DNA from: Thermoanaerobaculia bacterium
Lineage (GTDB): Bacteria > Acidobacteriota > Thermoanaerobaculia > UBA5066 > DATFVB01
Assembly: GCA_035717485.1 (NCBI GenBank)
Contig: DASTIQ010000044.1
Coordinates: forward strand, 3,791 to 67,790
Reading direction: 5' to 3'
Length of the DNA stretch: 64,000 nucleotides
Below are positions 37,901-54,305 of the stretch, piece by piece. The stretch's first letter is position 1. Each line of letters begins with the position of its first letter. The notes beneath the pieces were generated by a model. That model searched no databases, had not been told where the DNA came from, and was given only the letters and a program-made list of their open reading frames with translations. The translations under genes were made by a program, and so were the position numbers.

Positions 37901-40485
37901 CCGCGGGGGTGGATCGAGAGGCCTTCCGCGAGGTGGAAGACGATCGGGAACGCGATCGTCAGCACGGCGAGGGCCGACCAGACGAACGGCGATCCGGGGA
38001 GGACGAGCCACGCGGCGGCGAGCCACAGGAGGAGAGCCGGCGGGACGAGGCTCCTCCGGAGGTTGTCGAAGATCTTCCAGAGCGAGAGCGCCGAGAGATC
38101 GTTCCGCCGGGGTCCCCGTTCCCCCGGGACGCGCGGCCAGAGCCACCGGAGGAGCTGCCAGTCGCCGCGGATCCACCGGTGCTGTCGGCGCGTGTAGACG
38201 TCGTAGGAGGAGGGGTGATCCTCGAAGACCTCGATGTCCGTCGCGAGCGCGGAACGGGCGAAGCTCCCCTCGAAGAGGTCGTGCGAGAGGAGCGCGTTCT
38301 CCGGGATGCGGCCCGCGAGCGCCGCCTCGAAGGCGTCCACGTCGTAGATCGCCTTCCCGGTGAAGCTCCCCTCGTCGAAGAGGTCCTGGTACACGTTGGA
38401 GACCGCCGTCGTGTAGGGGTCGATCCCCGCGTGCCCGGAGGAGATCTGCGCGAAGGCGGAGCGGTTCGCGCTCTCCGGAGAAATGGAGACGCGCGGCTGG
38501 ACGATCGCATGGCCCTCGCGGACGACGCCGCTTCCGGAATCGAGTCGCGGACGGTTGAGCGGATGGGCGAGCGTCCCCGCGAGGGCGCGCGCCGAGTCGC
38601 GCGGCAGCCGCGTGTCGGCGTCGAGCGTGAGGACGAAACGGATCCGGCGGAGAGCGGCCGGATCGTCCGGGAGGATCTCGAAGGTCGTCGGCTCCTTCCC
38701 GCGGAGCGCGCGATTGAGCTCCGTGAGCTTCCCTCGCTTCCTCTCCCACCCCATCCATTTCCGCTCGGCCGGGTTCCATACGCGGCGGCGATGGAAGAGC
38801 CAGAAGCGGTCGCCTCCGTCGGCGGACCGCGTCCCGGCGGCTTCGTTGAGCAGCCGGATCCCTTCGACGAGGAGCGGGAGAAGGGCTTCCTCTCCGGATA
38901 CCGTTTCTTCCGGGGCGTCGGCGAAGTCGGTCAGGAGGGCGAAGCGGAGGCGGGGATCGGGATTCGCGTACGAACGGATCTGGAGGCCGGTCAGGAGGTC
39001 CCGGATGCCTTCTTCGTCGTCGAGGAGCGCGGGAATGGCGACGAGCGTCTCGAACTCGTCCGGGATCCCCTCGCGCCATTCGAGCTTCGGGAGGAGGCGC
39101 GGCGGAAAGAGGAGGGTCGCCGCGAAGTTCACGAGGGTCATCGCGAGCTCCGAGACCGGGACGAGCGCCAGGGTCGCGGTCGCCGCGACGAGACCCGGCG
39201 GGGCTCCCCAGCGGGCCGCATAGCGGACGACGAGAGCCTCGACGAGGGCCGCGATCGCGGCGATCGATCCGACGTAGAAGAGCGTCGGACGACCGAGGAC
39301 GACGCGGCGAATCGCGTCGGGGAGCGGCGGCCGCCACCCGACGGAGCGCTCGAGTCCCTCCCGCCCCCGGTCGATCAGGTACCAGCCGACGTGGCGCTCG
39401 GGTTCGCTGCGCGCGGCGGACGCCAGATCGATCGCCCGCCGGGCGATGCCCTTCTCGCGCTCGCCGTCCCGGCGTCCCAGCGTTTCGACGACGTGGCGGT
39501 AGCGGTCCCGGGTCGCGAAGTCCTGCTGAAGGTACGCGCCGGCGGGATCCTCGGAAAGGATCTTCTCGACGAGGCTGACCGACTCGAAGAAGTCGGACCA
39601 GTCCGTCTGCGCGAAGAGCCGCATGCTCGCGATGATGTTGGCGATCGTCGCCTGCGCGGTCGTCTGCCGGTGGTGCTCCGCGTGGACCGCGGCGTCGGTC
39701 GTCATCCCCTCCCGCGCGAGCCCCTCCTCGATCCAGCGCTGCGCCGCCGAGAGCGCGGGGTCGATGTCGCGGAGGCGCTGCATGACGCGGACCGCGAACG
39801 TCGGGTTCAGGACGATCTCCCGGCGCTCCGGGGTGCGGAGGACCGTCTCCGCGGTCTTCTCCCTTTCGCCGGGAGCGGCCCCGTCGATCGCCGCGAGGAT
39901 CCGGTCGCAGAGCGCGTCCGCCTTCGCGCGTTCCCGGCGGGCGACTTCCATCCGGCCCGCGAGCCGGCGAAGGTTCTCGATCAGGGCCATGCGGAACGCG
40001 ATCGGGACCGCCCACAGCTCGCCGATCGAGAGCGTCGTCACCCGCTGGTACGCCGTCAGGAACCGCCGCAGCGTCTCCATGTCCGGGTTGCTGTCGGTGT
40101 GGGCGATCACGTCGATCGCGATCGCGTACACCCGCGGATACCCCCGCCATTCCCCTTCCGCGAGCTGGGGGAGCTGCTTCTCGTAGGTCGCGGGAAAGTC
40201 CTGCCGGACCTCGCGGATCTGGTCGAGCACGAGGTGGAAGTTGTCGAGGAACCACTCGGCGGCGGGGGAGATCGGCTCGCCGCGGCGCGCGCCGGTGACG
40301 ATCGACTCGTGGATCGCCCGGAGCTCGCGATCACTCTCCTCGAGGCGCCGGCGGAGGAGATGCCGCCGCGACAGACGCGATACGGTCTCGTGGCTGGCGG
40401 CCAGGCGTTCGGCTTCGTGCTCGAGGCGTTCGGGTCCGTAGATGTCCGCCCGGATCGGCTCCTGCCGCCCGAGGCTCTTCCACAT
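31921..40485 (-). CDS. cgs: cyclic beta-1,2-glucan synthase (giant GT84 glycosyltransferase plus GH94 phosphorylase-like protein, about 2855 aa)
   Basis: Size and architecture (N-terminal TM and glycosyltransferase region, C-terminal cellobiose-phosphorylase-like region) fit Cgs/NdvB/ChvB. Proposed start is ATG at 40485 (MWKSLGRQEPIRADIYGPERLEHEAERLA...). The track 3009-aa version extends through the intergenic region. The 2895-aa plus-strand ORF 31864..40551 is its antisense artefact. Confidence 0.75.
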   Translation of the reverse strand: MWKSLGRQEPIRADIYGPERLEHEAERLAASHETVSRLSRRHLLRRRLEESDRELRAIHESIVTGARRGEPISPAAEWFLDNFHLVLDQIREVRQDFPATYEKQLPQLAEGEWRGYPRVYAIAIDVIAHTDSNPDMETLRRFLTAYQRVTTLSIGELWAVPIAFRMALIENLRRLAGRMEVARRERAKADALCDRILAAIDGAAPGEREKTAETVLRTPERREIVLNPTFAVRVMQRLRDIDPALSAAQRWIEEGLAREGMTTDAAVHAEHHRQTTAQATIANIIASMRLFAQTDWSDFFESVSLVEKILSEDPAGAYLQQDFATRDRYRHVVETLGRRDGEREKGIARRAIDLASAARSEPERHVGWYLIDRGREGLERSVGWRPPLPDAIRRVVLGRPTLFYVGSIAAIAALVEALVVRYAARWGAPPGLVAATATLALVPVSELAMTLVNFAATLLFPPRLLPKLEWREGIPDEFETLVAIPALLDDEEGIRDLLTGLQIRSYANPDPRLRFALLTDFADAPEETVSGEEALLPLLVEGIRLLNEAAGTRSADGGDRFWLFHRRRVWNPAERKWMGWERKRGKLTELNRALRGKEPTTFEILPDDPAALRRIRFVLTLDADTRLPRDSARALAGTLAHPLNRPRLDSGSGVVREGHAIVQPRVSISPESANRSAFAQISSGHAGIDPYTTAVSNVYQDLFDEGSFTGKAIYDVDAFEAALAGRIPENALLSHDLFEGSFARSALATDIEVFEDHPSSYDVYTRRQHRWIRGDWQLLRWLWPRVPGERGPRRNDLSALSLWKIFDNLRRSLVPPALLLWLAAAWLVLPGSPFVWSALAVLTIAFPIVFHLAEGLSIHPRGIPWTSHFWSVWGDAMDNCAQFALRVAFLPHLAIVSLDAALRATWRQFVSHRGLLDWTTAAAAEKNRADSVPAYFRRMGAGWTLTIVLAAATAAFAPGSLVAASPFLLLWVVAPALAAQLSRPIPEARPEISDAERREFREIARQTWRYFDRFCGAAENGLPPDNYQEDRDPPVAHRTSPTNVGLSLLAVLAAHDFGYVGTDDAIGRLERTLGSLERLPRHRGHFYNWYDTLTLTPLHPLYVSSVDSGNLAACLVALEEGAKALAASGGESDAWRDGLADVARIVAREFEKVPPSGVRTEAVPVHQLREQIRMLSETALAERDEEKCLREMARLAAEIADGLSALAAEHRELEIADLRGWLADLLAQVDSLGRGLPGDPPAAAVPASAAGAVAPAADPPPSRAERLLAIAQRAESLVREMDFGFLFDPDRKVFSIGFNPALGRLDRSYYDLLVSEARLTSFLAIAKGDAPTEHWFRLQRPFTVAAGKPLLLSWSGSMFEYLMPLLLLRSYPGTLLASTCRNAVAAQMQYGRARGVPWGVSESAYNARDLHLNYQYGPFGVPELGLRRTSPDELVVSPYSTFLALLADPSGAAENLRRLAAEGARGPFGFWESVDYTERRLPPDAGRAVIKASMAHHQGMILLALDNYLNRDVMRERFHADPSVQATELLLQERIPRNTAALAGAIVAQVAAGRVVREEATIPFRRFETPDTPTPRTQILSNGSYSVLMTAAGAGESRRGNLAVTRWRDDATTDSWGSWIYLRDVRSGVNWSAGYQPTVRPPKRFEARFSEHKVEISRSDEGIDTTMEVIVSSQDDAEIRRVTLANTSPRARDARDIEVTSYAEIVLGARAADVSHPAFSKLFVETEWIGNALLARRRPRSAEEAPVWAVHVLAVRGATLGAVQYETDRARFLGRGRSPRAPAVLVEDRPLSNTTGAVLDPIFSLRQRVRIAPGETARLLFSTGVADSREAAVALAERFQDPRLFDREASLAWMRSQVLLRHLDVTADEAQLFQRLATRIVYDDPSLRPPPEVLSRNAGSQRNLWGHGISGDLPIVLLRIGSADETELARQLIRAHEYWRLKGLSVDLVIVNDDPSGYFQPVQEQIQRLIGASPSQALVDKPGGVFVRRGDQISEEDATLLQTAARAVLVGERGTLAEQIERPPALESWPAPLTASTAAAARPAGPPPEPRRLLFGNGIGGFTPDGREYVVSLAERQYTPAPWVNVVANDEFGFFVSESGSACTWSENSQENRLTPWSNDPVSDPSGEAIYLRDDETADLWSPTALPIRGPEPCVCRHGQGYTVFEHRRGAIAAEVTTFVPEEGAVKITRLRLTNHGTAARRLSAAHYAEWVLGVDRSTARFVITQSDPAGGAIFARNPYNAEFGSRVAFSAVHAPGARLAATADRREFLGRNGHVSDPAALRRTTLLGRAGAGLDPCAAHLASFPLLPGETREIVFLLGQAGDRERASALIERFRDPASVEGALEQARRSWDRLLGGIVVRTPDPALDLLVNRWLPYQAISCRIRGRTAFYQSSGAFGFRDQIQDALGVASLAPEIARRLIPRFASHQFLEGDVQHWWHPPSGRGVRTRCSDDYLWLPYAVASYVDATGDEGLLDESVPYIEGPVLAEGEVESYQEPKESDLRESVYAHCVRALDRSAAVGSHGLPLIGSGDWNDGFNRVGFEGKGESVWLGWFLHATLSRFAAVAERRGDGERTTRYRGQAGALKSAIEEHAWDGDWYVRAFYDDGTPLGSARDAECRIDSLAQTWAALSGAGDRVRVERAMVAVEQYLVRREDGLILLFTPPFNTTPRDPGYIKGYLPGIRENGGQYTHAAAWTIMAFAELGQGDLAGELLALVNPIAPTSTRAGLHRYKVEPYVTAGDVYSVEPLTGRGGWTWYTGSAGWLYRAATESILGLRLEGSRFRVDPCIPRRWPRFEIQLRDGNETLYAITVENPRGACRGVREVVVDGAPSADRSIPRHGDGKRHDVRVVLGD

Positions 40486-40547
40486 CGCCGTGCTCCTGCC
40501 CAACCCACCTCCGGGGCGCGCGAGCAGCCTCGCGGGGCGCGCCTCGC

Positions 40548-40577
40548 TTGACAATACCGCAATCTTTTCTATGCTTC
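40548..40577 (+). promoter_or_regulatory. sigma70-like promoter candidate (TTGACA-N16-TATGCT) in a local low-GC patch upstream of cysK
   Basis: cTTGACAataccgcaatcttttcTATGCTtcc; AT-rich island in a 70% GC background, about 120 nt upstream of cysK. Confidence 0.35.
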
Positions 40578-40696
40578 CGGCGTGCCTGCCCGCCGCGCCT
40601 GTCCCCGCTGTCGCTCCACCCCGTAGCGCCCGGGCGGCTGACCACGTGTCGACGAGCCCGGATTGACCGGGCTCTTTTATTTGGGGAGAGGTGCCC

Positions 40697-41635
40697 GTGA
40701 GAATCGCCAGCGACGTCACCCGGTTGATCGGAAATACCCCGCTCGTGCGTCTGAACCGCGTCACGGAGGGCGCGGTCGCGACCGTGGCGGCCAAACTCGA
40801 GTTCTTCAATCCCGCGCACTCGGTCAAGGACCGCATCGGGGTCGCGATGATCGCCGCCCTCGAGCGCGCGGGGAAGCTCGATCCCCGGAACGCGTCGAAG
40901 TCGACGATCGTCGAGCCGACGAGCGGCAACACCGGTATCGCGCTCGCCATGGTCGCGGCGCAGCGCGGCTACTCCTGCGTGCTCGTGATGCCGGACACGA
41001 TGTCGAAGGAGCGCGTCAAGGTCCTGAAGTTCCTCGGCGCCGAGGTCGTCCTGACGCCCGGGGCCGAGGGCATCAAGGCGGCGCTCGCGAAGGCCGAGGA
41101 GATCGCGAAGGACCGGGGCGGTGTCATTCCCCAGCAGTTCGAGAATCCGGCGAACCCCGAGATCCACGAGCGGACGACCGCGATGGAGATCTGGAACGAC
41201 ACGGACGGCGACATGGACATCTTCGTGGCGGGAGTCGGCACCGGCGGGACGTTCACGGGCGTCGGCCGCGTCTGGAAGGCCTGGAAGCCGCAGGTGAAGC
41301 TGATCGCCGTCGAGCCGGCCGAGTCGCCCGTCATCGCGGGCGGCACGCACTCGAAGCACAAGATCCAGGGGATCGGAACGGGGATGATTCCGAAGAACCT
41401 CGACATGCGCTTCGTGGACGGCACGTTCTCGGTGTCGTCGGACCAGGCGCTCGTGATGGCGCGGCGCCTCGCCCGCGAGGAGGGGATCCTCGGCGGCATC
41501 TCGTCGGGCGCGGCGGCGCACGCGGCGGTCGAGATCGCGAAGCAGCCCGACAACCGGGGAAAGCTGATCGTCTGCATCTTCCCGTCGACCTCGGAGCGGT
41601 ACGTCTCGACGGATCTCTTCCAGGGAATCGACTGA
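40697..41635 (+). CDS. cysK: cysteine synthase A (O-acetylserine sulfhydrylase)
   Basis: [13 protein letters not shown] lysine context [17 protein letters not shown] and GIGTGGT motifs. GTG 40697 is preferred over 40691 on RBS spacing. Confidence 0.9.
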
Positions 41636-42474: not shown

Positions 42475-42519
42475 ATGCCGGCCGGAGGTCGCCGGGTAAC
42501 TTCCCTCTCGGAGGCACTC

Positions 42520-44343
42520 ATGGCCACGATCGATCCGGATCTCCCCGTCAAGGACCTCCTCGAGCGATTGCCGGAAATCCGGCCGGTGCTCGCGGCCTTC
42601 GACATCGATACCTGCTGCGGGGGACAGCATCCGCTGAAAGAGGCGTGCATCGCCCGGGGCGTCCCGCTCGAGGAGGTCCTCCGAGAGATCGGCCACATCC
42701 TTCCGGAGCCCGCCGGCGGCAGAACGCTCCGGGCCGTCCCCGCGCCGGGGGGCGATCTCGTCATCCCCGCGATGTCGATCCGGGAGATCGTCCGGCGGTT
42801 CCCGTCGACCGCGGCCGTGCTCGAGAAGCACGGGCTCGGCGACTGCGGGGGAGAGGACGGGCCCGACGAGCCGCTCGGGTGGTTCGCCACGGTCCACCGC
42901 ATCGCCCTCGGCCCGCTGATGGCCGACGTCAACGCCGCCGCGGCGCGCGACGGCCGCAAAGCTCCGGCGGCTTCCACGCCGAAGGCTCCGCCCCGTCCGT
43001 TCTCACCCGAGTTCATCGTCGGTTCGCTCGTCCTGACGCTGACTCTGGGCGCCACCACCGGGATGATCAACCTCCTCCGGATCGCGGCGGGGGGAGACGT
43101 GCCGTTCTCCCATCGCCAGATGCACGCGCACACGCAGATCCTCGGATTCGCGGCACTTTTCCTCATGGGGATCGCGTTTCACGCGCTCCCGCGCATCTCG
43201 GGAGTCGGCGGCGGTCCGCCCCGCTCCTCGAAGGCGACGTTCTGGCTGATGGCGGGCGGCGTGATCCTTCGGAACTTCGGGCAGCCGTTCAACCTCGCGC
43301 CGATCGGGCGAATCGCATCGCTGCTGTCGGGCGTGGCGGAGCTGGCGGCGGGCTGCCTCTTCGCGATCTTCGTCGCGGACCTGATTCGTCGCGCTCCGGC
43401 CGGCAAATACGGGAAGAAGGATCCTTTCCTCGTCCTGCTCGGATTCGGGACGACGTTCTTCCTGGCGGCCCTCGTCGTGAATGCCGCCCAGAGCGTCTGG
43501 CTCGCCGGACACCTCGAGACCGCGCTGCCGGCGGCGCTGGTCGACCCGTTCTACTTCGTCGCGCTGTACGGATTCCTGCTGGGGTGGGTGTTCGCCTTCG
43601 CGCACCGCGTCGTCGCTCTCTTCCTGGGCCTCGAGGCGCCGGGACCGAACCCGGCCCGCGCCGCGCTCGTTCTCCAGACGCTCGGCGTCGCGACGTTCCT
43701 CGCCGCCGGGATCCCCGGCCTTTCGAATCCGGCCGCCGCGCTCCTGCGGGACGCGGGAATGGCGGGCGTGGCCCTCGCCGCCATCGTCTTCGTCGCCGGA
43801 GCGAAACTCCTCGGCCGCCCGAAGCTTCCCGCGCTCGCTCCTCCCGGCAATCCGCTGTTCGCCATCCGGGCGGCGTTCGTCTGCCTGATGCTCTGGGCGG
43901 TCCTGGAGCTCGGCGCGATCGTCGTCGCCCGGACCACCGTGTTCCCGGCCCAGAACCTCTGGTGGGCGGATGCGGCGCGCCACGTCTTCACGATCGGGTT
44001 TCTGACGCTGATCATCGTGGGGATGAGCCTCCGGATCCTCCCGGTGTTCTCCGGAAAGACGCTCTGGTCGCCGAAGATGGCGTACGCCACGTACGCGCTG
44101 ATCCTGGCGGGGGTGGCGCTGCGGCTCCTCCAGTACCCGGCCGCGTTCCACGCGAAGCTCTACGAAGTCGGGTCCTGGATGGGCGTCTTCGTCGTGGGCG
44201 GTCTCGTCCTGTTCGCGGTCAACCTCGTCCGGACGATGCGCGCCCGGCCTCCGGCGCGCTCGACGCTTCCGGTCGCGCCCCCGGCGACCCCGGCCGCCTC
44301 CCCGGCGCCGTCGCGGTTCGTTTCCCGGCTGCCGGTCCGATGA
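42520..44343 (+). CDS. DUF1858-like redox domain fused to an NnrS family haem-copper membrane protein
   Basis: N-terminal about 70 aa LPVKDLLERLPEIRPVLAAFDIDTCCGG (DUF1858/ScdA-N-like), then a polytopic His-containing membrane domain typical of NnrS. Confidence 0.65.
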   Translation: MATIDPDLPVKDLLERLPEIRPVLAAFDIDTCCGGQHPLKEACIARGVPLEEVLREIGHILPEPAGGRTLRAVPAPGGDLVIPAMSIREIVRRFPSTAAVLEKHGLGDCGGEDGPDEPLGWFATVHRIALGPLMADVNAAAARDGRKAPAASTPKAPPRPFSPEFIVGSLVLTLTLGATTGMINLLRIAAGGDVPFSHRQMHAHTQILGFAALFLMGIAFHALPRISGVGGGPPRSSKATFWLMAGGVILRNFGQPFNLAPIGRIASLLSGVAELAAGCLFAIFVADLIRRAPAGKYGKKDPFLVLLGFGTTFFLAALVVNAAQSVWLAGHLETALPAALVDPFYFVALYGFLLGWVFAFAHRVVALFLGLEAPGPNPARAALVLQTLGVATFLAAGIPGLSNPAAALLRDAGMAGVALAAIVFVAGAKLLGRPKLPALAPPGNPLFAIRAAFVCLMLWAVLELGAIVVARTTVFPAQNLWWADAARHVFTIGFLTLIIVGMSLRILPVFSGKTLWSPKMAYATYALILAGVALRLLQYPAAFHAKLYEVGSWMGVFVVGGLVLFAVNLVRTMRARPPARSTLPVAPPATPAASPAPSRFVSRLPVR

Positions 44344-44570
44344 GCGGCGAGCCGCGCGTGATCGACGTGCGTCCGATCCTCCAGTCGGGCGGCGAACCGC
44401 TCGATGCGATTCTCGCGGCGGCCGAAACCGTCGCGCCGGGGGAAGCCCTCGTCGTGATCGCGCCGTTCGAGCCGATGCCGCTCTACGGTCTGATGCGACA
44501 GATGGGCTTTTCCCGCGACGTCGAGGAGCTGGACGGCGGCGGATTCCGGGTGACGTTCACGCGCGGCTGA
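44340..44570 (+). CDS. DUF2249 domain protein
   Basis: 76 aa, MSGEPRVIDVRPILQSGGEPLDAIL...; ATG overlaps the nnrS stop (ATGA). DUF2249 is commonly linked to NnrS/hemerythrin NO-response genes. Confidence 0.6.
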   Translation: MSGEPRVIDVRPILQSGGEPLDAILAAAETVAPGEALVVIAPFEPMPLYGLMRQMGFSRDVEELDGGGFRVTFTRG

Positions 44571-44781
44571 GCCGTTGGAACGCCGCCGGCCGATTCGGTA
44601 GAGTGGCGACGTCCGGTTCCGGGGGACGGCGGGATCGGGAGGAGGGACGACGGCAGGCGAAGCGACCACCCAGGGCTCGGACGTCCGGCACGCGGCGGCC
44701 TGGGGTCTTCTCGCGGCGATCCTGGTCCTCGCCGGGATCTATGTCGGAAGCCGACGTCTCAAGGACTTCGATCCGGCGCTC

Positions 44782-45714
44782 GTGTCCTACGCGGGAGCGA
44801 CCGTCTTTTGCGCGTTCGGGCTCGGCTACCGTTACTCGATGTGGCTCCGCCGCCCGCCGACCCGCCTCTTCTGGTTCCGCGGCTGGCGGCTCTTCCTCGA
44901 TCCCCGGCGGCTGCCGAGGAACGCCGCCCGTCTCGTCTCGCTCTTCTGGAACAACATCCTCGCCCAGACCTTCATCCGCCGGCGATCGCGCGTCCGATGG
45001 GCGGCGCACTGGCTGATCTTCTGGGGGTGCATTCTCGCGGCGGCGGTCACGTTCCCTCTCTCCTTCGGGTGGATCCGCTTCGAGACCCCGCGCGATTCCC
45101 AGAGCGTGTACCAGGCATACGTCTTCGGCATCCACGTCTTTTCGTTCCCGCTCGCGAGCATCGTCGCGCCGCTCGTTTTCAACGTGCTCGACATCTCGGC
45201 CTTCCTCGTTCTCGGGGGCATCTTCTTCGCTCTCTGGCGCCGCGGCCGGGATCGGGGCGCCTTCGCGGTGCAGCAGTTCGCCAACGACCTCCTCCCGCTT
45301 CTCCTGCTCTTCGCGGTTTCGGCGACCGGCCTCTTCCTCACCGCCTCGACGCACTTCATGAACGGCTTCCATTACGTCTTCCTGTCGCAGATCCACGCCG
45401 TGACGGTGATCTTCACGCTCCTCTATCTCCCGTTCGGCAAGTTCTTCCACATCTTCCAGCGTCCGGCGCAGCTCGGCGTGGCGTATTACAAGAAGATCGG
45501 GGCGGAGGAGGCGGCGGCGCGGTGCGCCGTGTGCGGCGAGGCGTTCGCGTCCGTGATGCACCGCGAGGACCTCAAGACGGTCGAGAGCGCGCTGGGGATC
45601 CGGTATGCGCTCGAGTCGGGCGGCCATTACCAGGACGTCTGCCCGTCCTGCCGGCGGAAAACGCTCGCCGTCGTTCAGGACGGGCTGTGGCGCGCCGGGA
45701 CGCGGGAGGTCTGA
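44782..45714 (+). CDS. NarI-like cytochrome b membrane subunit (respiratory nitrate reductase gamma family) with a Cys-rich C-terminal tail
   Basis: [17 protein letters not shown] aligns with the NarI TM1 region. The [10 protein letters not shown] motif and conserved His in TM2/TM5-equivalent helices are present. C-terminal CAVCGE...CPSCRRK. Start uncertain (see findings). Confidence 0.6.
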
Positions 45715-47936
45715 TGGCGAAGCTTCCGGCCCCCCTTTCGCAGATCGTGGATCGTTTCGGCCCGCACACCAAGGGAGTTCCGGCGGGTGGATGGGCGCCG
45801 ATCGGAGAGCCGGACCGATTCGTCAAGACCCACTGCTGCTTCTGCGGCCAGCAGTGCGGGATCCAGCTGAAGGTCAAGGACAACAGGGTCGTCGGATTCG
45901 AGCCGTGGGAGGACTTTCCGTTCAACGCCGGCAAGCTCTGCCCGAAAGGCGTCAAGCGATACATGCAGGACGAGCACCCGGACCGGCTCCGGTCGCCGCT
46001 CGAGCGCGTCGAAGGGGAGGGCTTTCGGCCGGTCTCCTGGGACCTCGCCCTCGATCGCACCGCGAAGGAGATCCGCCGCATCCAGGAGCGGTACGGCGAC
46101 GACGCCTTCGCGGTGCTCACGGGAGCGTCGCTGACCAACGAGAAGGCCTACCTGATGGGGAAGTTCGCGCGCGTCGCGGTCCGCACCGCGAACATCGACT
46201 ACAACGGACGGCTCTGCATGGTGTCGGCCGCCGCGGCGTCGAAGAAGGTCTTCGGGATCGACCGGAGCGCGAATCCGTGGAGCGACATCCCGAAGGCGAA
46301 GGCGATCCTCGTCGCCGGCGCCAACGTCGCCGACTGTGCGCCGATCACGACCGACTACCTCTGGCAGGCGCGCGAGAACGGGGCGAAGATCATCGTCCTC
46401 GATCCCCGGATGACCCCGATCGCGCGCACGGTGGATCTCTTCATCCCGGTTCGCCCGGGCGGCGACATCGGGATCTTCAACGGGATGCTCCACGTGATGA
46501 TCGAGCGAGGGTGGGTCGACCGCGAATTCATCTCGGAGCACACGACCGGATTCGAGAAGGTCGAGGAGTCCGTCCGCAAGTACACGCCGGAATACGCGGG
46601 CAGGATCGCGGGGGTGCCTCCCGCGATGATCGTGAAGGCCGCGGAGATCTGGGGACCCGCGGAGACGAGTTTCCTCCTCCATGCGCGCGGCATCGAACAC
46701 CACTCGAAGGGCGTCGAGAACTGCATGGCGGCGATCAACCTCGTCGTCGCGACCGGGCGGATCGGCCGCGAAGGGTGCGGCTACGCCATGATCACGGGGC
46801 AGGGGAACGGCCAGGGGGCGCGGGAGCAGGGGCAGAAGTGCGACCAGCTCCCCGGCGGGCGCGACATCGAGAACCCCGACCATCGCCGCTTCATCGCGGA
46901 AGTCTGGGGGGTCCCGGAGGAGTCGATCCCGCACAAGGGTCTGTCGGCGGTTCCCCTCCTGGAGGCGGTCCACGCCGGCAAGATCAAGGGGCTGCTCCTC
47001 ATCTGCTTCAATCCCATGGTTTCGCTCCCCGACCAGAATTTCATCCGGGAAGCGCTCGAGAAGCTCGAGTACTTCGCCGTCATCGACTTCTTCCTCTCCG
47101 AGACGGCGCGGTTCGCGGACGTCGTCCTCCCCGGCTCGCTCATGGAGGAGGACGAGGGGACGACGACCAGCGTCGAGGGAAGGGTGATCCATCACCGGAA
47201 GGCGGTCGAGCCGCCGGCCGGCGCGCGGGAAGACTGGCGGATCGTCTGCGATCTCGCCGCGCGGCTCGGGGCCGGGGTGAAGTTCCCGTACGGCTCGCCG
47301 CGGGAGATCTTCGAGGAGCTCCGCACCGCGTCGAAGGGGGGCGTCTCCGACTATTTCGGCATCACGTGGGAGAAGATCGACGCGCAGAAAGGGGTCTTCT
47401 GGCCCTGCCCGTCGCTCGATCACCCCGGGACCCCGCGACTCTACGAAGGGGCGCGATTCGGCCATCCCGACGGCCGGGCGCATTTCCAGGCCGTCGAGTG
47501 GCGGCCGGCGGCCGAAGAGCCGGACGCCGAATATCCCGTGATCCTCACGACCGGCCGCGTGGTGTCCCAGTATCTCTCGGGGACCCAGACGCGGCGGATC
47601 GCCGGGCTCATGGCCCAGGAGCCGGAACCCTTCTGCGAGATCCACCCCAACCTCGCCGCCCGGTACGGGATCGAACCGGACGGGTTCGTCAGCGTCGAGA
47701 GCCGCCGCGGATCGACGGTCGTCCGCGCGCGGATCGTCCGGACGATCCGGCCCGACACGGTCTTCGTGCCGTACCACTGGCCCCTCGCGCGCGCCGCGAA
47801 CAACTGCACGATTCGGGCGATCGATCCCGTGTCGAACATCCCGGAATTCAAGATCTGCGCCGTCCGCATCTCGGCGGCGCCGCGCCCGGACGATGCGATC
47901 GCCCGGCTCCCGCCGGAAGCCGGGGGAATCGCGTGA
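45714..47936 (+). CDS. molybdopterin (bis-MGD) oxidoreductase catalytic subunit, about 740 aa, no Tat signal (nitrate-reductase / arsenite-oxidase-like)
   Basis: GGGAGG then ATG 45714 overlapping the upstream TGA. N-terminal [10 protein letters not shown] (C-x2-C-x3-C) FeS motif, MopB-type body. The track ORF 44808..47936 is an N-extended fusion of frames. Confidence 0.8.
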
Positions 47937-48553
47937 GCGAGCTCGCCTTCTTCATCGACTATTCGCGGTGCATCGGATGCCGGGCGTGCGTGCAGGCGTG
48001 CGAGGAATGCGACACCCATCGCGGAGTCTCGATGATCCATCTCGAGACGATCCGCCGCGCCGATACCGTTCAGACCGCTCCGCAGGTCTGCATGCACTGC
48101 GAAGATCCGATCTGCGCGCGCGTCTGCCCGGCCGACGCGATCAAGCAGACCCCCGACGGCGTGACCCAGTCGGCGCTGAAGCCCCGCTGCATCGGATGCA
48201 GCAACTGCGTCCTGGCGTGCCCCTTCGGCGTGCCGAAGTACTTCGGCGCGATCGACCAGATGATGAAGTGCGACTACTGCTACGACCGGACGAGCGCGGG
48301 AAAGCGCCCGATGTGCGCGACCGTCTGTCCTTCCCAGGCGCTCGCGTTCACGACGCGCGAGGAGATCGAGAGGAAGCGCCAGGGAACCGCGATCAACCTC
48401 TGGAAGTTCGGCGGCGAGGTCGTCCGAACGAAGATCTCGGTGATCGTTCCCTCGGGAGTGTCCGAGATCCGGATCGGCGAATCGGCACTTTCCCGTGCGG
48501 GAGGCCCCGCCGGCGCGACCGAGGACGTGGCCGTGCTGCTGGGAGAGATCTGA
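47933..48553 (+). CDS. four-cluster 4Fe-4S ferredoxin-type electron-transfer subunit (complex iron-sulfur molybdoenzyme beta-like)
   Basis: GTG 47933 overlaps the MopB stop (GTGA). Four Cys clusters: [43 protein letters not shown]...CATVCP. Confidence 0.8.
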
Positions 48554-48554
48554 C

Positions 48555-49052
48555 GTGGAGGAGCGCGAGGGAGCCGGCCCGCGCTGGCGCGAGGACTTCC
48601 CGATCGCGTGGGAGCGGGACCACTACGTCACGCGCCGCGAGCTCGCGAAGTTCCTGACGCTCGGCTCGGCTCTGCTGGCGGGCGCCAGCGCCGTGATCGC
48701 GCTGGCGGGACGGCTGTGGAAACCGGCCCGCCGCCGGCGCACGCGGATCGCGAGCGCGGCCGCGGTTCCGCGCGGCGGCTCGCTCCTTTTCCGGTTCCCG
48801 ACCGACGAAGACCCCTGCATCCTCCTCCGCGCGCCGGACGGCTCCTTCGAGGCCTACTCGCAGGTCTGCACGCATCTTTCCTGCGCCGTCGTCTACCGGC
48901 CCGAGGATCGGACGCTCGCCTGCCCCTGTCACAAGGGGGTATTCACGTGCAGCGAAGGGCGGCCGATCGCAGGACCGCCGACGCGCCGGCTCCCGCGGAT
49001 CGTCCTCGACGTCCGCGGCGACGACGTTTTCGCGACCGGAGTGGAGCTGTAG
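48555..49052 (+). CDS. Rieske 2Fe-2S protein with twin-arginine (Tat) signal
   Basis: TRRELAKFLTLGSALLAGASAV Tat-like motif. Rieske boxes CTHLSC and CPCHKG. Start GTG 48555 (alternative ATG 48495 would overlap the FeS gene). Confidence 0.7.
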   Translation: MEEREGAGPRWREDFPIAWERDHYVTRRELAKFLTLGSALLAGASAVIALAGRLWKPARRRRTRIASAAAVPRGGSLLFRFPTDEDPCILLRAPDGSFEAYSQVCTHLSCAVVYRPEDRTLACPCHKGVFTCSEGRPIAGPPTRRLPRIVLDVRGDDVFATGVEL

Positions 49053-49062
49053 GGAGATCGCC

Positions 49063-49308
49063 GTGGAGACGCGCAAACAGGGAACGACCCTCTTCACCGC
49101 GATCGCGGTGCTCATCGGCATGCTCGTCGTGATCCAGCTCTGGCTGGTCGCGGCGGCCCTCGAGGCGCTCCTCTCGGGGAATCGCGGCGCGCTGCTGCCC
49201 GCGGCGATCGCCTCCGTCGTCCTCCTACTCGTCAACGCCGGGCTCCTCCTCTACATCGTCCGGTTCGACGAGCGGATCCGGCGCCTCGAGGCGCCTCCGC
49301 GTGACTGA
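49063..49308 (+). CDS. small two-helix membrane protein (81 aa)
   Basis: Two hydrophobic helices. Its stop overlaps the GTG start of the HPP gene. Confidence 0.4.
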   Translation: METRKQGTTLFTAIAVLIGMLVVIQLWLVAAALEALLSGNRGALLPAAIASVVLLLVNAGLLLYIVRFDERIRRLEAPPRD

Positions 49309-49936
49309 GCGGCGGCCGCCGCTCTCGCTTCTCGAGCCGCAGGTCGTACGGGGGCTCGCGGAACGGCTGCGGATCGCCCGGCTCCTCCGGCGCTTTCCCG
49401 AGCGGAACGTCTGGGCGGCATTCATGTTCGTCAACGGATTCATCACGATCGCGCTGCTCGCCGCCCTCGCGATGGTTTCGCGGACGCCGTTCGTCTTCCC
49501 GTCGCTCGGACCGACGGCGTTCCTCTTCTTCTTCACGCCGACGCTTCCGACGGCGAGCCCGCGGCATTCGATCTACGGGCACGCGATCGGGATCGCCTGC
49601 GGATACGGGGCTCTGCTCGCGACCGGGCTCCAGCACGCGCCTCCGGCGATGGTCGCCGGGGTGGACTTTCGGCGCGTGCTGGCGGCGGCCCTCTCGCTCG
49701 CCGCGACGGGCGCGCTCATGATCCTCTTCAAGGCGGCGCATCCGCCGGCAGGCGCCACGACGCTCATCATCTCGCTCGGAATCGTGACGAGGCCGTCCTA
49801 TCTTCTGGTCATCGAGATCGCGGTGGCCCTTCTGACGATCCAGGCCATCGCGATCAACCGCCTCGCCGGCATCGACTACCCCCTGTGGTCCCGACGAGCG
49901 GAGCCGTCTGGCAGAACGGACGGCCCGCTGGCGTAG
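49301..49936 (+). CDS. HPP family integral membrane protein (family implicated in nitrite transport)
   Basis: 211 aa, four hydrophobic segments, HPP motif context ...KAAHPPAGATTLI.... Confidence 0.6.
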   Translation: MTERRPPLSLLEPQVVRGLAERLRIARLLRRFPERNVWAAFMFVNGFITIALLAALAMVSRTPFVFPSLGPTAFLFFFTPTLPTASPRHSIYGHAIGIACGYGALLATGLQHAPPAMVAGVDFRRVLAAALSLAATGALMILFKAAHPPAGATTLIISLGIVTRPSYLLVIEIAVALLTIQAIAINRLAGIDYPLWSRRAEPSGRTDGPLA

Positions 49937-50035: not shown

Positions 50036-51442
50036 ATGGAGAGAAACCACCGGCGAATCCTCGTGGCTCTTCCCCTGGGAATGGCGATATTCCTCGCCCT
50101 GGGGGCCCCGCGGCAGGCGGGCGCGGTCCCCGTCTTCTCCCGGAAATACCAGACTTCGTGCCAGACCTGCCATGCGATCTTTCCGAAACTGAACCCCTTC
50201 GGCGAAGCCTTCCGCTTGAACGGATACCGGATGCCGATGGAAACGCCGGAGCTGGTCAAGCAGCCCCCGGTGTCGCTCGGCTCCGAGGCGTATGAGCGGA
50301 TCTGGCCGGCGATGGTCTATCCGAGCGACCTGCCGTCGTTCGTGCCGCTCGCGATCAACGTCAAGATGGCCGACATCTACGCTTCGAGCCACGACGACAG
50401 CGGCAAAACGATCACGCACAACGACTTCCAGTTCCCGCAGGAAGCAAACCTCTTCTCGGCCGGCACTCTCGGATCGCATTTCAGCTTCTTCGGCGAGGTG
50501 ACGTACGCGGAGAGACCCGACGGCGGCACGGACGTCGAGATCGAGCACGCGCGGCTCGACCTGGATTCGGCGTTCGGGCCGGAGCATCTCTTCAACTTCA
50601 AGATCGGCAAGTTCGCGCCCGACCTCTACGACGGCTTCCAGGAAATGTGGCTGATGACCGACAACGGCGTCGACTCGCTCTTCGCCTTCAGCCCGATCGG
50701 GATCCACGGCGGGACCGGACTCTCCGAGGAAGGGCCCGGCGTCAGCCTGCCGGACCGGATGCGCGCGATCGAGATGTACGGCGTGGCCGCGCATCGGTTC
50801 TTCTACACGATCGGCTACGGGAGTCCGATCGGGCCGGGCGGCCCGAACGACACGTTCGGGAGCAGCAGCCGGAAGGACGTCTACGCCCGGATGGACTACA
50901 AGTTCGGCGGGATGGGGCTCGACGGCGACACGACGGGGGTCACGCTGCCCCCGGAGAACTGGCGCGAGCATTCCCTCCGCATCGGCGTCCTCGGCTACTA
51001 CGGCGACGGCTCTCAGGCCGACCCCTTCGACATCACGGACGAGGAGGGGAACGCGTTCAAGATGCGCGACACCCATTACGGGAGGATCGGCGCCTACGCG
51101 TCCCTCTACGTCGGCGACCTGAACCTCTTCGGCGTCGCGCTCCACGGGACCGACAAGCTCCAGCTCAGCGACCCCGACACGCTGACCGAGATCAGCACGA
51201 CCACGCGGACGTACGACGCGTGGTTCGCCCAGGCGGACTACGTCATCGTGCCGCCGTTCCAGCTCTCGCTCCGCTACGAGAACCTCCGGGTCGCCGATCC
51301 CGTCACGCCGACGATCAAGACCCTGAACGCGAACGCGAGCTTCCTGATCCGGGCCAACATCAAGGCCATGATCGAATACAACCGGGACCTCCGCGATTCC
51401 GAGAATTACACGCTCGCGACGGTCCTCCGATTCGCTTATTGA
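50036..51442 (+). CDS. Cyc2-like fused monohaem cytochrome c / outer-membrane beta-barrel (porin) protein
   Basis: Signal peptide, then a single CQTCH haem motif followed by PKL within 12 residues. About 420 aa of alternating amphipathic beta-strand-like sequence ending in an aromatic C-terminus (...LRFAY). Confidence 0.65.
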   Translation: MERNHRRILVALPLGMAIFLALGAPRQAGAVPVFSRKYQTSCQTCHAIFPKLNPFGEAFRLNGYRMPMETPELVKQPPVSLGSEAYERIWPAMVYPSDLPSFVPLAINVKMADIYASSHDDSGKTITHNDFQFPQEANLFSAGTLGSHFSFFGEVTYAERPDGGTDVEIEHARLDLDSAFGPEHLFNFKIGKFAPDLYDGFQEMWLMTDNGVDSLFAFSPIGIHGGTGLSEEGPGVSLPDRMRAIEMYGVAAHRFFYTIGYGSPIGPGGPNDTFGSSSRKDVYARMDYKFGGMGLDGDTTGVTLPPENWREHSLRIGVLGYYGDGSQADPFDITDEEGNAFKMRDTHYGRIGAYASLYVGDLNLFGVALHGTDKLQLSDPDTLTEISTTTRTYDAWFAQADYVIVPPFQLSLRYENLRVADPVTPTIKTLNANASFLIRANIKAMIEYNRDLRDSENYTLATVLRFAY

Positions 51443-52042: not shown

Positions 52043-53038
52043 GTGAGAAACCGGGTGGGTCGGCCGCGCCTTCTCTTCCGCATCGCCGCCCTTCTCCCTC
52101 TGCTGGCCGCCCTCGGGTGGGCGGCCGGCGAGCGGGGAGGCGACCGAGGAGGAAACCGTCCCGCGAGCCACGTTCCGGAAAAGCCGACCTCAACGGTCGG
52201 CGAGAGCTGGGTGCGCCATCTCCGGATCTCTCTCGAGAACACGACGCTCGGGGGGATCGGCCGCTGGGGACCGTCGAGCCCGCAGCCTACCGGGTCCGTT
52301 TCGGCTCCCCGGGAGTCGCTCGGTTCCCCGTTCGTCCTGAGCGGGAAGGACCTCTACCGGCTGAACTGCCAGGCATGCCATCGCGAAGACGGAAGCGGAG
52401 CGCCTCCCGAGGTCCTCCCCGTGACGAGCCTCGCGCGCGCGACGTCCCGGCAATACTTCCGGGACAAGATGAAGGAACGGGGGCTGCCGGTCGACGAGGC
52501 CCAGCTCGCCAAGAACGCGGCGGAGGCGGAAGCGTCCCTCCGCAAGAGGATCCGGAGCGGCGGCGAGAAGATGCCGCCGTTCCCGCAGCTCGACCACGCC
52601 GAGACCGAGAGCGTGATCGCGTACGTCAAGCAACTCTCCGGAGTGCCGGAGCCGGGGCCCCCTCCCGCGCCCCTCGAGGAGCCCGTCAACCGCGTCGGCG
52701 AGCTCCTCGTCAAGGGAACGTGCCACGTGTGCCACGACGCCTCGGCGACGCCGACCACGGCGTTCGAATACCGCGTCGGCTACGGAGAGCCGCCCCCTCT
52801 CTCGTTCTTCACGGAGCAGCGAACGCCCGCCCAGCTCGTCCGGAAGGTCCGGGAGGGGCTCGCGGAACCGAGCGTTTCCGCCCGGCACGGACGCATGCCG
52901 ATCTTCGACTATCTCACGCCCGAGGAGGTCACCGCGGCCTACATCTACCTCCTCACGGAACCTCCGGGACGCGGCGCCGCCGCATCCCCGGGAGCGTCGG
53001 TGCCGGCGGCGGCCGGAGGAGGGCGCCCGAAACTATAA
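52043..53038 (+). CDS. dihaem cytochrome c (periplasmic)
   Basis: GTG 52043, signal peptide, two CxxCH motifs (CQACH, CHVCH). Confidence 0.7.
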   Translation: MRNRVGRPRLLFRIAALLPLLAALGWAAGERGGDRGGNRPASHVPEKPTSTVGESWVRHLRISLENTTLGGIGRWGPSSPQPTGSVSAPRESLGSPFVLSGKDLYRLNCQACHREDGSGAPPEVLPVTSLARATSRQYFRDKMKERGLPVDEAQLAKNAAEAEASLRKRIRSGGEKMPPFPQLDHAETESVIAYVKQLSGVPEPGPPPAPLEEPVNRVGELLVKGTCHVCHDASATPTTAFEYRVGYGEPPPLSFFTEQRTPAQLVRKVREGLAEPSVSARHGRMPIFDYLTPEEVTAAYIYLLTEPPGRGAAASPGASVPAAAGGGRPKL

Positions 53039-53047
53039 TCGCGGGTC

Positions 53048-53734
53048 GTGCCCCCACGGCCTCCGATTCCTTTCGAGGCGATCCCGATCCTCGCGTCGCT
53101 CCGGCCCGAGGACCGCGACGCTCTCGCGCCGCTGTGCGAGATGCGCGGCTACGAGAAGGGGGAGACGATCTTCCGGGAGGGGGATCCCGGCGAGCGCATC
53201 CACTTCGTGTTCATCGGCCGCGTCAAGATCGTCAAGGCCGGCCCCGGGCGAGACCTGATCCTGGAGATCCTCGGCCCGGGGGAGCCGGTCGGCGCGGTCG
53301 CGGCGTTCGAGCGCAAGGCCTTTCCGGCGACGGCCGTCGCGCTCGAAGCCTGCGGGGTCCTCTCGATCCCGGAGCGACAGTTCTTCGAGCTCCTGGAGAA
53401 GCGCCCGGAGATCACCCGCCGGCTCTTCGCCGGGCTGACGATGCGGCTCATGAACCTCAACCGCCATCTCGCCGACATGCTGGGCTCGGTCGAGTATCGC
53501 GCCGCGCGGCTCTTCCTGACGCTCGCCGCGAAGATGGGCCAGAAGCGCGACGGCGCGGTCTTCATTCCGGTCGCGCTCTCGCGCCAGGAGCTCGCCGACC
53601 TGATCGGGACCACGATCGAAACGGCCATCCGCGTGATGAGCCGGTGGCAGAAGGACGGGCTCGTCGAGACGGAGAAGAACGGCTTCCTTCTTCTCCGGCC
53701 GGCGGCGCTTCGCGAGATCAGCTCGGTGGCGTGA
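53048..53734 (+). CDS. Crp/Fnr family transcriptional regulator lacking an N-terminal Cys cluster (Dnr/NnrR-like)
   Basis: cNMP-binding-like domain (GETIFREGDPGERIHFV...) and C-terminal HTH (SRQELADLIGTTIETAIRVMS). No FNR-type Cys motif. Confidence 0.75.
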   Translation: MPPRPPIPFEAIPILASLRPEDRDALAPLCEMRGYEKGETIFREGDPGERIHFVFIGRVKIVKAGPGRDLILEILGPGEPVGAVAAFERKAFPATAVALEACGVLSIPERQFFELLEKRPEITRRLFAGLTMRLMNLNRHLADMLGSVEYRAARLFLTLAAKMGQKRDGAVFIPVALSRQELADLIGTTIETAIRVMSRWQKDGLVETEKNGFLLLRPAALREISSVA

Positions 53735-54248: not shown

Positions 54249-54254
54249 GGCTTG

Positions 54255-54275
54255 ACTCCCGTCCGGCCCGGGAGT
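54255..54275. promoter_or_regulatory. inverted repeat ACTCCCG-N7-CGGGAGT in the divergent rrf2 / multihaem-cytochrome intergenic region (candidate Rrf2 operator)
   Basis: 7-bp perfect arms. A second palindrome ATCAAttcTTGAT lies at 54283-54295, and TTGAC at 54252-54256. Confidence 0.35.
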
Positions 54276-54305
54276 ACCGTTTCATCAATTCTTGATGGAG
54301 AACTC

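Follow-up and report, generated by a model that had tools for sequence, protein, structure and literature searches.

A conserved operon encoding a candidate quinol-linked nitrate reductase with a NasC-type catalytic subunit, a probable NarI-superfamily cytochrome b and a Rieske protein in a Thermoanaerobaculia genome

Introduction

Nitrate reductases of the Nas type are soluble enzymes that receive electrons from an NAD(P)H flavoprotein, ferredoxin or flavodoxin, and their genes are linked with that of an assimilatory nitrite reductase. In arsenite oxidase, a MopB subunit without a signal peptide is exported by hitch-hiking on a Rieske subunit with a twin-arginine translocation (Tat) signal. 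A recent MopB superfamily survey assigns NasC/NasA homologues solely to nitrate assimilation. An operon that departs from the Nas scheme in its partner proteins was found in a Thermoanaerobaculia bacterium (Acidobacteriota; GenBank assembly GCA_035717485.1, contig DASTIQ010000044.1), in a stretch of 64,000 nucleotides (nt) analyzed as a whole and referred to below as the window. The operon encodes a cytochrome b, a NasC-type MopB subunit, an iron–sulfur (FeS) subunit, a Rieske protein and a DUF6755 protein. Their five products probably form a quinol:nitrate oxidoreductase that is bound to the membrane and has its active site in the cytoplasm; a NarGHI-like logic would here be built on a NasC-type subunit. 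An earlier interpretation made from the letters of the DNA (the sequence-only reading) had described a compact molybdoenzyme that resembles nitrate reductase but combines subunits in an unusual way; the Nas/Nap active-site signature, the clade placement, the gene linkage and the genomic context support this description.

The catalytic gene of such operons is routinely labelled "assimilatory nitrate reductase (nasA/nasC)", and the cytochrome b gene is labelled "hypothetical" or, wrongly, "MFS transporter". Full-text searches of literature available without subscription found no paper on the operon and likewise none mentioning DUF6755.

Organization of the Operon

Genes were called using third-position G+C content (the G+C content of the window is ~69%) and alignments of homologues. 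The cytochrome b, MopB, FeS, Rieske and DUF6755 genes are translationally coupled and constitute one operon at 44602–49308 (+), with the HPP gene next to it:

44602/44782–45714 (+), probable cytochrome b of the NarI/HdrE/DsrM superfamily (sub-threshold family matches, conserved His and Cys residues)
45714–47936 (+), MopB, predicted NasC-type catalytic subunit with molybdenum-bis(pyranopterin guanine dinucleotide) (Mo-bisPGD), 740 amino acids (aa) (Pfam, NCBIfam, neighbor-joining tree)
47933–48553 (+), FeS subunit with four [4Fe-4S] clusters, 206 aa (Pfam Fer4_11, 16 Cys)
48555–49052 (+), Rieske [2Fe-2S] protein, 165 aa (Pfam Rieske)
49063–49308 (+), DUF6755 protein, 81 aa (Pfam DUF6755, 66.2 bits)

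From the cytochrome b gene to the HPP gene, the junctions are, in order, TGATG, GTGA, TGAcGTG, a 10-nt gap with a Shine-Dalgarno sequence, and an 8-nt overlap. The first four genes stand on the plus strand in the order that the sequence-only reading had given. The unit described there was incomplete, since the fifth conserved gene, that of DUF6755 (49063–49308), belongs to it. Two proposed starts were also revised. The alignment places the start of the Rieske gene at GTG 48555 (165 aa) instead of 48495. For cytochrome b, a start at 44782 would omit a conserved extra helix that lies in frame upstream; the homologues have a length of 355–370 aa.

The cytochrome b frame is open from 44602 (stop at 44599), and the conserved protein begins by ~44674, so that the first canonical start, GTG 44782, is internal relative to homologues. 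No ATG, GTG or TTG occurs in the frame between the stop at 44599 and the conserved first helix. A relative with 89% identity (L097) has an ATG where the sequence of the window is 2 nt shorter, and a further 1-nt indel follows. Either the G-rich stretch was misassembled locally, or initiation is non-canonical. Rfam models, including Moco riboswitches, gave no match in the whole window, and the results of promoter and terminator scans of the window were at chance level.

Occurrence of the Operon in Other Genomes

One genome per species was scanned, and a relative was found to be encoded in 452 genomes; the best 80 loci were compared. These loci belong to Acidobacteriota (Terriglobia, Vicinamibacterales), Myxococcota (including the isolate Anaeromyxobacter oryzae), Planctomycetota, Actinomycetota, Binatia and Betaproteobacteria and represent six or more phyla. 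According to the tblastn analysis, the cytochrome b, MopB, FeS and Rieske genes are collinear in all 80 loci, each from a different species; therefore, the arrangement is not due to chance. The DUF6755 gene directly follows the Rieske gene in 76 loci (tblastn). Identity to the proteins of the window in these loci is 76–84% for MopB, 67–81% for the FeS subunit, 62–73% for cytochrome b and 48–67% for the Rieske protein.

The same set of genes was found in more distant relatives. The megaplasmid pDrdI of Deinococcus wulumuqiensis carries all five genes followed by a nitrate/nitrite transporter gene, with MopB identity of 59%. A cluster representative with 54% identity shows an identical layout, and a 72-aa counterpart of DUF6755 is encoded after its Rieske gene. 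Thus, the co-occurrence of the Rieske gene with this MopB across genomes, proposed as a check by the sequence-only reading, was observed in 80 of 80 loci, on the Deinococcus plasmid and in the 54%-identity relative.

Database searches gave more than 8000 matches for MopB, 5816 for cytochrome b and 2171 for the Rieske protein. Most of the matched entries bear the name assimilatory nitrate reductase, the label hypothetical protein or one of several Rieske names. The Deinococcus cluster was at one point considered to lack cytochrome b; its "MFS transporter" gene proved to encode a cytochrome b homologue that is 49% identical over 300 aa. This protein (WP_114673479.1; pDrdI, L081 7889–9001), together with P0146 and P0147, bears the label "MFS transporter" in public annotation. 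WP_114673479.1 has no MFS match in Pfam, and the label on the cytochrome b homologue is a propagating misannotation.

Identity and Active Site of the MopB Subunit

MopB contains the Pfam domains Molybdop_Fe4S4, Molybdopterin and Molydop_binding. The protein has 100% identity with an NCBI entry that stems from a metagenome-assembled genome of Thermoanaerobaculia; an exact-sequence look-up yielded no contig. The FS0 [4Fe-4S] motif of MopB has the form C-x2-C-x3-C...C, and the Cys ligand of Mo is located in RLCMVS. The FeS motif and the absence of a Tat signal from the 740-aa protein, both noted from the sequence alone, were confirmed: there is no twin-arginine leader.

Among NCBIfam models, the NasC equivalog was by far the best match (831.5 bits, cut-off 1100), followed by the alpha subunit of formate dehydrogenase (FDH) (TIGR01591; 655 bits, just under the cut-off of 666), the NapA models (282–289 bits, cut-offs 904–930), the large subunit of arsenite oxidase (141.8 bits, cut-off 359) and narG (TIGR01580; 50.5 bits, cut-off 1084). 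Two results weigh against a nitrate reductase of the NasC type: the NasC score is under the equivalog cut-off, and the best solved structures found with the MopB sequence are FDHs (490 bits, as compared with 357 bits for NapA). No NasC-type chain is present among the 52 PDB matches of MopB.

The active site was aligned with those of the Ralstonia NasA adjoining nirBD, a Sinorhizobium nitrate-reductase homologue, Escherichia coli NapA and Citrobacter FdhF. The MopB family has the Nas/Nap residues, namely, RLC-M, Asp at position +15, and TGQ...G-ARE. The FDH residues Cys/Sec-His, Arg-GQ and CDMG are absent from the family in this alignment. An FDH identity was rejected on these grounds, despite the top structure matches. 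The ARGxEH sequence of the family is a NasC-type feature. The Arg of ARG(I)EHH, which corresponds to MGFNQ in Nap, was considered as a sign of a new substrate and was discarded, as this Arg is common to all NasC-type sequences, verified equivalogs included. Only the change of Gln to His in EHH is specific to the MopB family, and NasC types have EQH or EQQ. As a separate observation, a 1039-aa protein of Paracoccus versutus pTAV4 (L084, 26–3145), which was first labelled NasC and then compared as an FDH, has the FDH signature RVC-H, RGQNNVQG and CDMG.

An exhaustive search among representatives of 50%-identity clusters showed that the nearest proteins outside the family are 43–47% identical to MopB, and two of them exceed the NasC equivalog cut-off. 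The contexts of these proteins include NirA with an NrtABC-type transporter; NasB-like, NirB and NirD proteins; and siroheme synthase (in one case also with NirD). Two others adjoin an MFS (major facilitator superfamily) transporter and a MarR regulator, respectively. Assimilatory context or transporter adjacency was found in five of the six neighbouring subclades examined.

A neighbor-joining (NJ) tree was constructed for 36 sequences (684 columns, 40 bootstraps). The MopB proteins linked with cytochrome b are monophyletic (40/40), and together with NasC-type sequences they form one clade (40/40) apart from the proteobacterial NasA/NapA and from FDHs. The placement among molybdoenzyme clades that the sequence-only reading had asked for is thus in the NasC-type clade, as a separate and fully supported subclade. 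That reading had also made the unusual character of the system depend on MopB not nesting in a characterized clade with standard partners and on the linkage of the Rieske gene. MopB does nest among NasC-type sequences; its partners are non-standard, and the Rieske gene is linked. NirA, NirBD and NasB partners are encoded beside the sister subclades, and the partners in the operon are cytochrome b, the FeS subunit, the Rieske protein and DUF6755. There are no nap accessory genes within the operon. The clade placement taken together with the active-site signature indicates that MopB is a distinct offshoot of NasC-type nitrate reductases with newly acquired partners.

A different substrate, with the complex acting either as a membrane-bound FDH donating electrons to quinone or as a reductase of some other oxyanion, e.g., chlorate, selenate or nitrite-derived species, appears very improbable. 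The FDH structure matches, the near-threshold Fdh-alpha score and the family-specific EHH near the active site speak for it. Against this, the (Sec/Cys)-His pair and the Arg before GQ of FDHs are absent, whereas Cys-Met, Asp at +15 and GRE/ARE are present; MopB clusters with verified NasC equivalogs in 40 of 40 bootstraps; and the gene context is one of nitrate/nitrite transport and nitric oxide (NO) stress.

Genomic Context and the Question of Assimilation

The following genes surround the operon in the window:

42475–44343 (+), ScdA_N–DUF1858–NnrS fusion protein, 622 aa (Pfam)
44340–44570 (+), DUF2249 protein (Pfam; ATGA overlap with the NnrS fusion gene)
49301–49936 (+), HPP-family membrane protein, putative nitrite transporter family (Pfam TM_HPP, 85.2 bits)
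53048–53734 (+), candidate regulator of the Crp/Fnr family (Pfam/NCBIfam)
53718–54248 (−), candidate regulator of the Rrf2 family (Pfam/NCBIfam)

Pfam analysis bore out the neighbours named in the sequence-only reading (the DUF1858-NnrS protein, which is an ScdA_N–DUF1858–NnrS fusion, DUF2249 and HPP). NnrS and DUF2249 are families associated with NO and nitrosative stress. The triple fusion of ScdA_N, DUF1858 and NnrS is unusual; with the DUF2249 gene coupled to it, it lies ~100 nt ahead of the expected start region of the cytochrome b gene. A search with a relaxed FNR/Crp box (TTGATNNNNATCAA, at most 2 mismatches) revealed 12 sites in the window versus 4.45 expected, and none of 100 shuffles reached 12. 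None of these sites is upstream of the operon, and two are inside the HPP gene (49421 and 49718).

In the 80 loci, recurring neighbours were annotated as clusters of open reading frames (ORFs) present in six or more loci. A gene for a NarK-like MFS transporter is located directly upstream on the same strand in 44 loci according to ORF clustering; its match to TIGR00886 (211 bits) is below the cut-off. HPP is encoded downstream of the operon in 19 loci according to ORF clustering and in 24 according to tblastn. The two were never found together in one locus (0/80), which suggests that they are functionally interchangeable transporters for the MopB complex. HPP is thus an accessory part, whose place is taken by the NarK-like protein in other lineages. 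A nitrate/nitrite transporter gene is present in 63 loci by ORF clustering, or in up to 68 when the tblastn matches of HPP are counted. Other recurring neighbours are ScdA-hemerythrin (RIC; 18 loci), NnrS (17–18), Crp/Fnr (15–17), a CLC channel (12) and qNor (6–7). The NarK-like or HPP transporters, NnrS, RIC, qNor and Crp/Fnr near the operon agree with the nitrate, nitrite or NO-related substrate suggested by the sequence-only reading. The recurring-neighbour clusters included no NirA/NirBD or NasB, nor any siroheme synthase or regulator of the Ntc/NasT type, and no NarJ chaperone gene was found in the operon or among the conserved neighbour clusters of the 80 loci.

These data bear on another possible function of the complex, namely, that of an assimilatory nitrate reductase fed by the quinol pool, which would serve nitrogen acquisition rather than respiration or redox balancing and pass nitrite to NirA or NirBD encoded elsewhere. 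Its chemistry and its cytoplasmic orientation would not differ from those of the main reading. We consider this function unlikely. It would agree with the position of MopB within the NasC-type clade and with the assimilatory or transporter contexts of the five neighbouring subclades mentioned above, as well as with source annotations, which say assimilatory nitrate reductase. Some hosts are aerobic, e.g., Deinococcus and Acidobacteriaceae, and NarK-type transporters also accompany nas operons. However, the recurring neighbours in the 80 loci include none of the assimilatory genes just named (nitrite reductase, siroheme synthase, Ntc/NasT-type regulator), and RIC, NnrS, qNor and Crp/Fnr are typical of denitrification or NO-stress regulons. 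A membrane anchor of the redox-loop kind has no known assimilatory precedent.

Cytochrome b and the FeS Subunit

The sequence-only reading had called the cytochrome b NarI-like. The similarity is real, and the Pfam score is below threshold: Nitrate_red_gam matched the identical region of four divergent members with 13.6–19.9 bits (cut-off 22.9). In NCBIfam, QmoC (E = 4e-6) and TcuB and TmcC (~2.5e-4) were matched. Pfam and NCBIfam gave no match to cytochrome b/b6 of the bc1/b6 family, and the best models belong to the NarI superfamily. Alignment of E. coli NarI in hhalign showed that its haem ligands in transmembrane helix (TM) 5, H187 and H205, match the invariant H242 and H260 of the cytochrome b. 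Among 47 cytochrome b sequences, H113, H228, H242 and H260 as well as C285, C288, C324 and C327 are invariant. A conserved His before the first helix was considered as a haem ligand and rejected; this position is occupied by His or Arg and is not conserved.

The AlphaFold2 model (pLDDT, predicted local distance difference test, 74.5) contains six helices, a three-stranded sheet on the outer face, a long basic loop and a C-terminal four-Cys domain. The latter has the form CxxC...CxxC, and the strongly basic loop connects TM1 and TM2. The best Foldseek match of the model was EtfD of Mycobacterium smegmatis (E = 0.02). EtfD has a NarI-like membrane domain.

Three findings count against assignment to NarI. 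The family score is below the Pfam threshold, a profile search against PDB sequences gave no meaningful match, and one TM2 His is conserved while the second TM2 haem His of NarI is absent. The invariant TM4 His may substitute for the latter, and the four invariant membrane His residues would allow two haems. The protein is probably a di-haem cytochrome of the NarI/HdrE superfamily and not a NarI orthologue.

As for the FeS subunit, its four clusters and GTGA coupling to the MopB gene, both read from the sequence earlier, were corroborated by 16 Cys residues in four motifs. These residues are conserved in 97–100% of 68 homologues. The protein matches Pfam Fer4_11 (64.3 bits) and the NCBIfam models FDH-beta (100.7 bits) and DmsB (97.8 bits); the match to narH (TIGR01660) is 34.8 bits with a cut-off of 524. 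Neither a signal peptide nor a TM helix is present.

Rieske Protein, DUF6755 and Membrane Topology

The Rieske protein with the TRRELAKFL leader, also noted earlier, was verified by the Pfam Rieske match (40.5 bits) and by the presence of the motif. NCBIfam scores were all below the cut-offs: 53.2 for QcrA, 47.8 for AioB (arsenite_ox_S, cut-off 95.65) and 33.4 for PetC. The protein consists of one helix rich in Gly, Ala and Ser, a basic linker and a minimal Rieske domain. The N-terminal conserved segment includes W11, D14, F15, P16, W19, D22 and Y24, followed by the invariant twin arginine R27 and R28. The Tat-like motif is present in three divergent lineages as TRRELAKFL, SRREFTRFL and NRRAFLHIM. 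The bc-type boxes CTHLSC and CPCH are invariant, both disulfide cysteines included. In the AlphaFold2 model (pLDDT 89.8), the best Foldseek match was AioB (E = 4e-9, 26–29% identity), followed by the Chlorobaculum and b6f Rieske proteins. According to the alignment, DUF6755 forms a membrane hairpin of two helices; its QLWL motif is conserved, and both of its ends are positively charged.

Three topologies were considered. We lean slightly toward Tat export of the Rieske domain, which would then be positioned on the outer face by the conserved cytochrome b loop and would act in the quinol-oxidizing site or as the first electron acceptor. Arguments for this topology are that the twin arginine is invariant, that the helix has a Tat-like composition in three lineages and that the disulfide cysteines are of the bc type. 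A cytoplasmic Rieske domain has a distinctly smaller, though appreciable, chance. It is favoured by the flanking charges of the helix and by the NasG precedent described below: the mean net charge is ~0 on the N-terminal flank and ~+3.8 on the C-terminal flank, so that the positive-inside rule would place the domain in the cytoplasm.

The third topology, in which the enzyme faces outward, is improbable. MopB and the FeS subunit would fold in the cytoplasm and be exported via Tat with the Rieske signal-anchor, as AioA is by AioB, and electrons could be split as in a Q cycle, one passing from Rieske to FeS and Mo and the other via the b haems, as proposed for haloarchaeal pNar. The only Tat-like motif of the operon is on the Rieske protein, invariant in the three divergent lineages; the Rieske model is closest to AioB and has the bc-type disulfide cysteines; and in haloarchaea and Methanoperedens, nitrate reductases that face outward are linked to modules of Rieske protein and cytochrome b. 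All this would be consistent with export. However, we know of no characterized NasC-type enzyme that is periplasmic, and the transporter gene in 63–68 of the 80 loci resembles nar and not nap operons. In addition, cytochrome b has large, basic and conserved domains on its cytoplasmic side that would be left partnerless, and this cytochrome is not of the bc1/b6 type and has no known Qi-site features. FeS–Rieske fusions in L024, L025 and L027 were considered as a clue to topology and dismissed, as the long ORFs are out-of-frame extensions.

For the reading preferred here, a cytoplasmic nitrate reductase with an exported Rieske domain, the main puzzle is the Rieske protein. The flanking charges contradict its export, it is not obvious what its centre would do in a simple redox loop of the Nar type, and its nearest structural relative, AioB, carries a MopB without a signal peptide outward, which makes a periplasmic enzyme possible.

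Proposed Function and Its Implications

The analysis shows what the subunits are, which cofactor motifs they carry, how strictly their genes are linked, to which clade MopB belongs and in which genomic context the operon stands. From the cofactor motifs, the absent signal peptides, the clade membership and the transporter linkage we infer the substrate, the electron path, energy conservation, the role of the Rieske protein and the orientation, including that of MopB, called "cytoplasmic-type" in the sequence-only reading. In the proposed mechanism, the six-helix cytochrome b, which probably carries two haems, would oxidize menaquinol at its outer face. Electrons would cross the membrane via two haems, the outer ligated by H242/H228 and the inner by H113/H260, and reach the FeS subunit with its four [4Fe-4S] clusters, which is presumed to dock on the cytoplasmic face at the basic loop and the four-Cys C-terminal domain. 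They would then pass to FS0 and to the Cys-ligated Mo-bisPGD of MopB, where imported nitrate would be reduced to nitrite in the cytoplasm. Transport of nitrate and nitrite may proceed via the linked NarK-like MFS protein or, alternatively, HPP, and the NnrS, RIC and qNor neighbours may handle NO by-products. With quinol protons released outside and protons consumed inside, a Nar-like redox loop could be formed. The Rieske protein and DUF6755 would be obligatory extra membrane subunits.

A bolder interpretation, which we hold to be improbable, is that the complex represents a fourth class of prokaryotic nitrate reductases beside Nar, Nap and Nas, in which a Tat-exported Rieske protein and a NarI-type cytochrome b would form a quinol-oxidizing site unrelated to that of bc1/b6f. 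In its boldest version, the two electrons of quinol would be split, one passing via the b haems to the reduction of nitrate in the cytoplasm and the other via the Rieske protein to acceptors in the periplasm, e.g., c-type cytochromes that supply reductases of nitrite, NO or N2O.

If the enzyme is quinol-linked and respiratory in style, nitrate-reduction potential has been assigned to the wrong pathway in nitrogen-cycle inventories. Such misassignment would affect soil Acidobacteriota, Myxococcota and others, with up to ~450 species genomes and thousands of metagenome proteins. Probably, many genes counted as nitrate assimilation belong to this respiratory-style enzyme. It would also mean a second origin of membrane-bound nitrate reductase, in which a soluble enzyme of the NasC type recruited a NarI-superfamily cytochrome. 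DUF6755 and the orphan class of Rieske proteins gain a concrete context that can be tested, and cultured hosts exist, namely, Anaeromyxobacter oryzae Red232 and Deinococcus wulumuqiensis NEB 479.

Other Genes in the Window

The gene at 50036–51442 (+), which comes immediately after the operon and where the G+C content is lower (0.644), encodes a protein of 468 aa. This protein has a signal peptide, one haem motif (CQTCH) close to its N-terminus and an extended C-terminal part that ends in ...RFAY. Its layout is that of Cyc2-type outer-membrane porin-cytochrome Fe(II) oxidases. The protein has no Pfam or NCBIfam match and was not found in the 80 related loci.

A cytochrome c of 331 aa is encoded at 52043–53038 (+), and a di-haem cytochrome c of 409 aa fused to a cupredoxin-like domain at 61193–62422 (+). 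These two cytochromes suggest that the operon is surrounded by many genes for electron transfer in the periplasm. The gene at 54252–56366 (+), divergent from the Rrf2 regulator gene, encodes a membrane-anchored multihaem cytochrome of 704 aa with four CxxCH motifs, one CGSSGCH (CX4CH) and weak Cytochrome_C554 matches. An ORF of 3009 aa at 31921–40950 (−) combines GT2, glucoamylase-like and GH94 domains, which is the architecture of cyclic beta-1,2-glucan synthase.

Comparison with Known Systems

The predicted logic of the complex is that of NarGHI, with a probable b cytochrome in which two His align with the TM5 pair of NarI, a four-cluster FeS subunit and a cytoplasmic Mo-bisPGD subunit; the NarK-type gene directly upstream in 44 of 80 loci resembles the narK-narGHJI arrangement. 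The alpha subunit is Cys-ligated, NasC-type and 740 aa long, whereas NarG has ~1200 aa and an Asp ligand to Mo, and the beta subunit has 206 aa as compared with ~500 aa in NarH. The gene order is gamma-alpha-beta, and the operon lacks a detected NarJ chaperone gene. The cytochrome b has six helices and a four-Cys domain and lacks the second TM2 His, and the Rieske protein and DUF6755 are two extra subunits, apparently obligatory.

MopB shares its clade with NasC-type enzymes (Bacillus NasBC, actinobacterial NasC-NasB-NirBD and NirA-linked NarB-like proteins), as well as RxCM, DR, (A/G)RGxE, TGQxNGQG-GRE and the lack of a signal peptide. Identity to them is only 43–47%, and the partners are not NasB/NirB flavoproteins, NirA or NirD. 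The neighbourhood resembles that of NO stress or denitrification, unlike the assimilatory one of NasC. In NasC-NasG-NasB of Paracoccus, a cytoplasmic nitrate reductase of the Nas type has a Rieske-type [2Fe-2S] protein as its electron donor; thus, a Rieske-type partner of NasC is not unprecedented. However, NasG is soluble and NirD-type (Pfam Rieske_2), without disulfide cysteines or a membrane anchor, whereas the Rieske protein studied here is of the bc/Aio type (CTHLSC/CPCH) with a twin-arginine helix.

In haloarchaeal and Methanoperedens pNarGH, a Rieske protein and a b cytochrome are likewise encoded or work with the nitrate reductase. Those enzymes are NarG-type and outward-facing, with a Tat signal on NarG and a bc1/b6-type cytochrome b. 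AioAB, and also IdrAB, combine a MopB lacking a signal peptide with a small Rieske subunit bearing a Tat motif, and AioB is the closest solved Rieske structure. Aio has neither a four-cluster subunit nor a cytochrome b, and the score of MopB with the AioA model is 141.8 bits (cut-off 359). In AioA, the cluster is [3Fe-4S] and Mo is not ligated by the protein, whereas MopB has a Cys ligand and a four-Cys FS0 motif.

The best family and structure matches of the cytochrome b are QmoC, TcuB, TmcC and EtfD. In the NarI-like transmembrane modules of DsrMK, HdrDE, TmcBC, QmoC and EtfD, a b cytochrome feeds a cytoplasmic FeS partner. That partner is a CCG-domain (HdrD-like) protein, and none of these systems has a MopB or Rieske subunit. 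Nap differs in the Tat signal of NapA and in its NapB/NapC or NapGH partners; MopB has no twin-arginine leader. The bc1/b6f complexes have a Rieske protein with a membrane anchor and the boxes CTHLGC/CPCHGS, which correspond to CTHLSC/CPCH here, and their cytochrome b belongs to another family.

As judged from these comparisons, the complex falls outside Nar (by its alpha and beta subunits and chaperone), Nap and Aio, and outside the bc complexes by its cytochrome b, and with Nas it shares only the catalytic subunit. Its logic is similar to that of NarGHI and its chemistry to that of NasC; its Rieske protein resembles those of Aio and the bc complexes, and its cytochrome resembles the DsrM, HdrE and EtfD modules.

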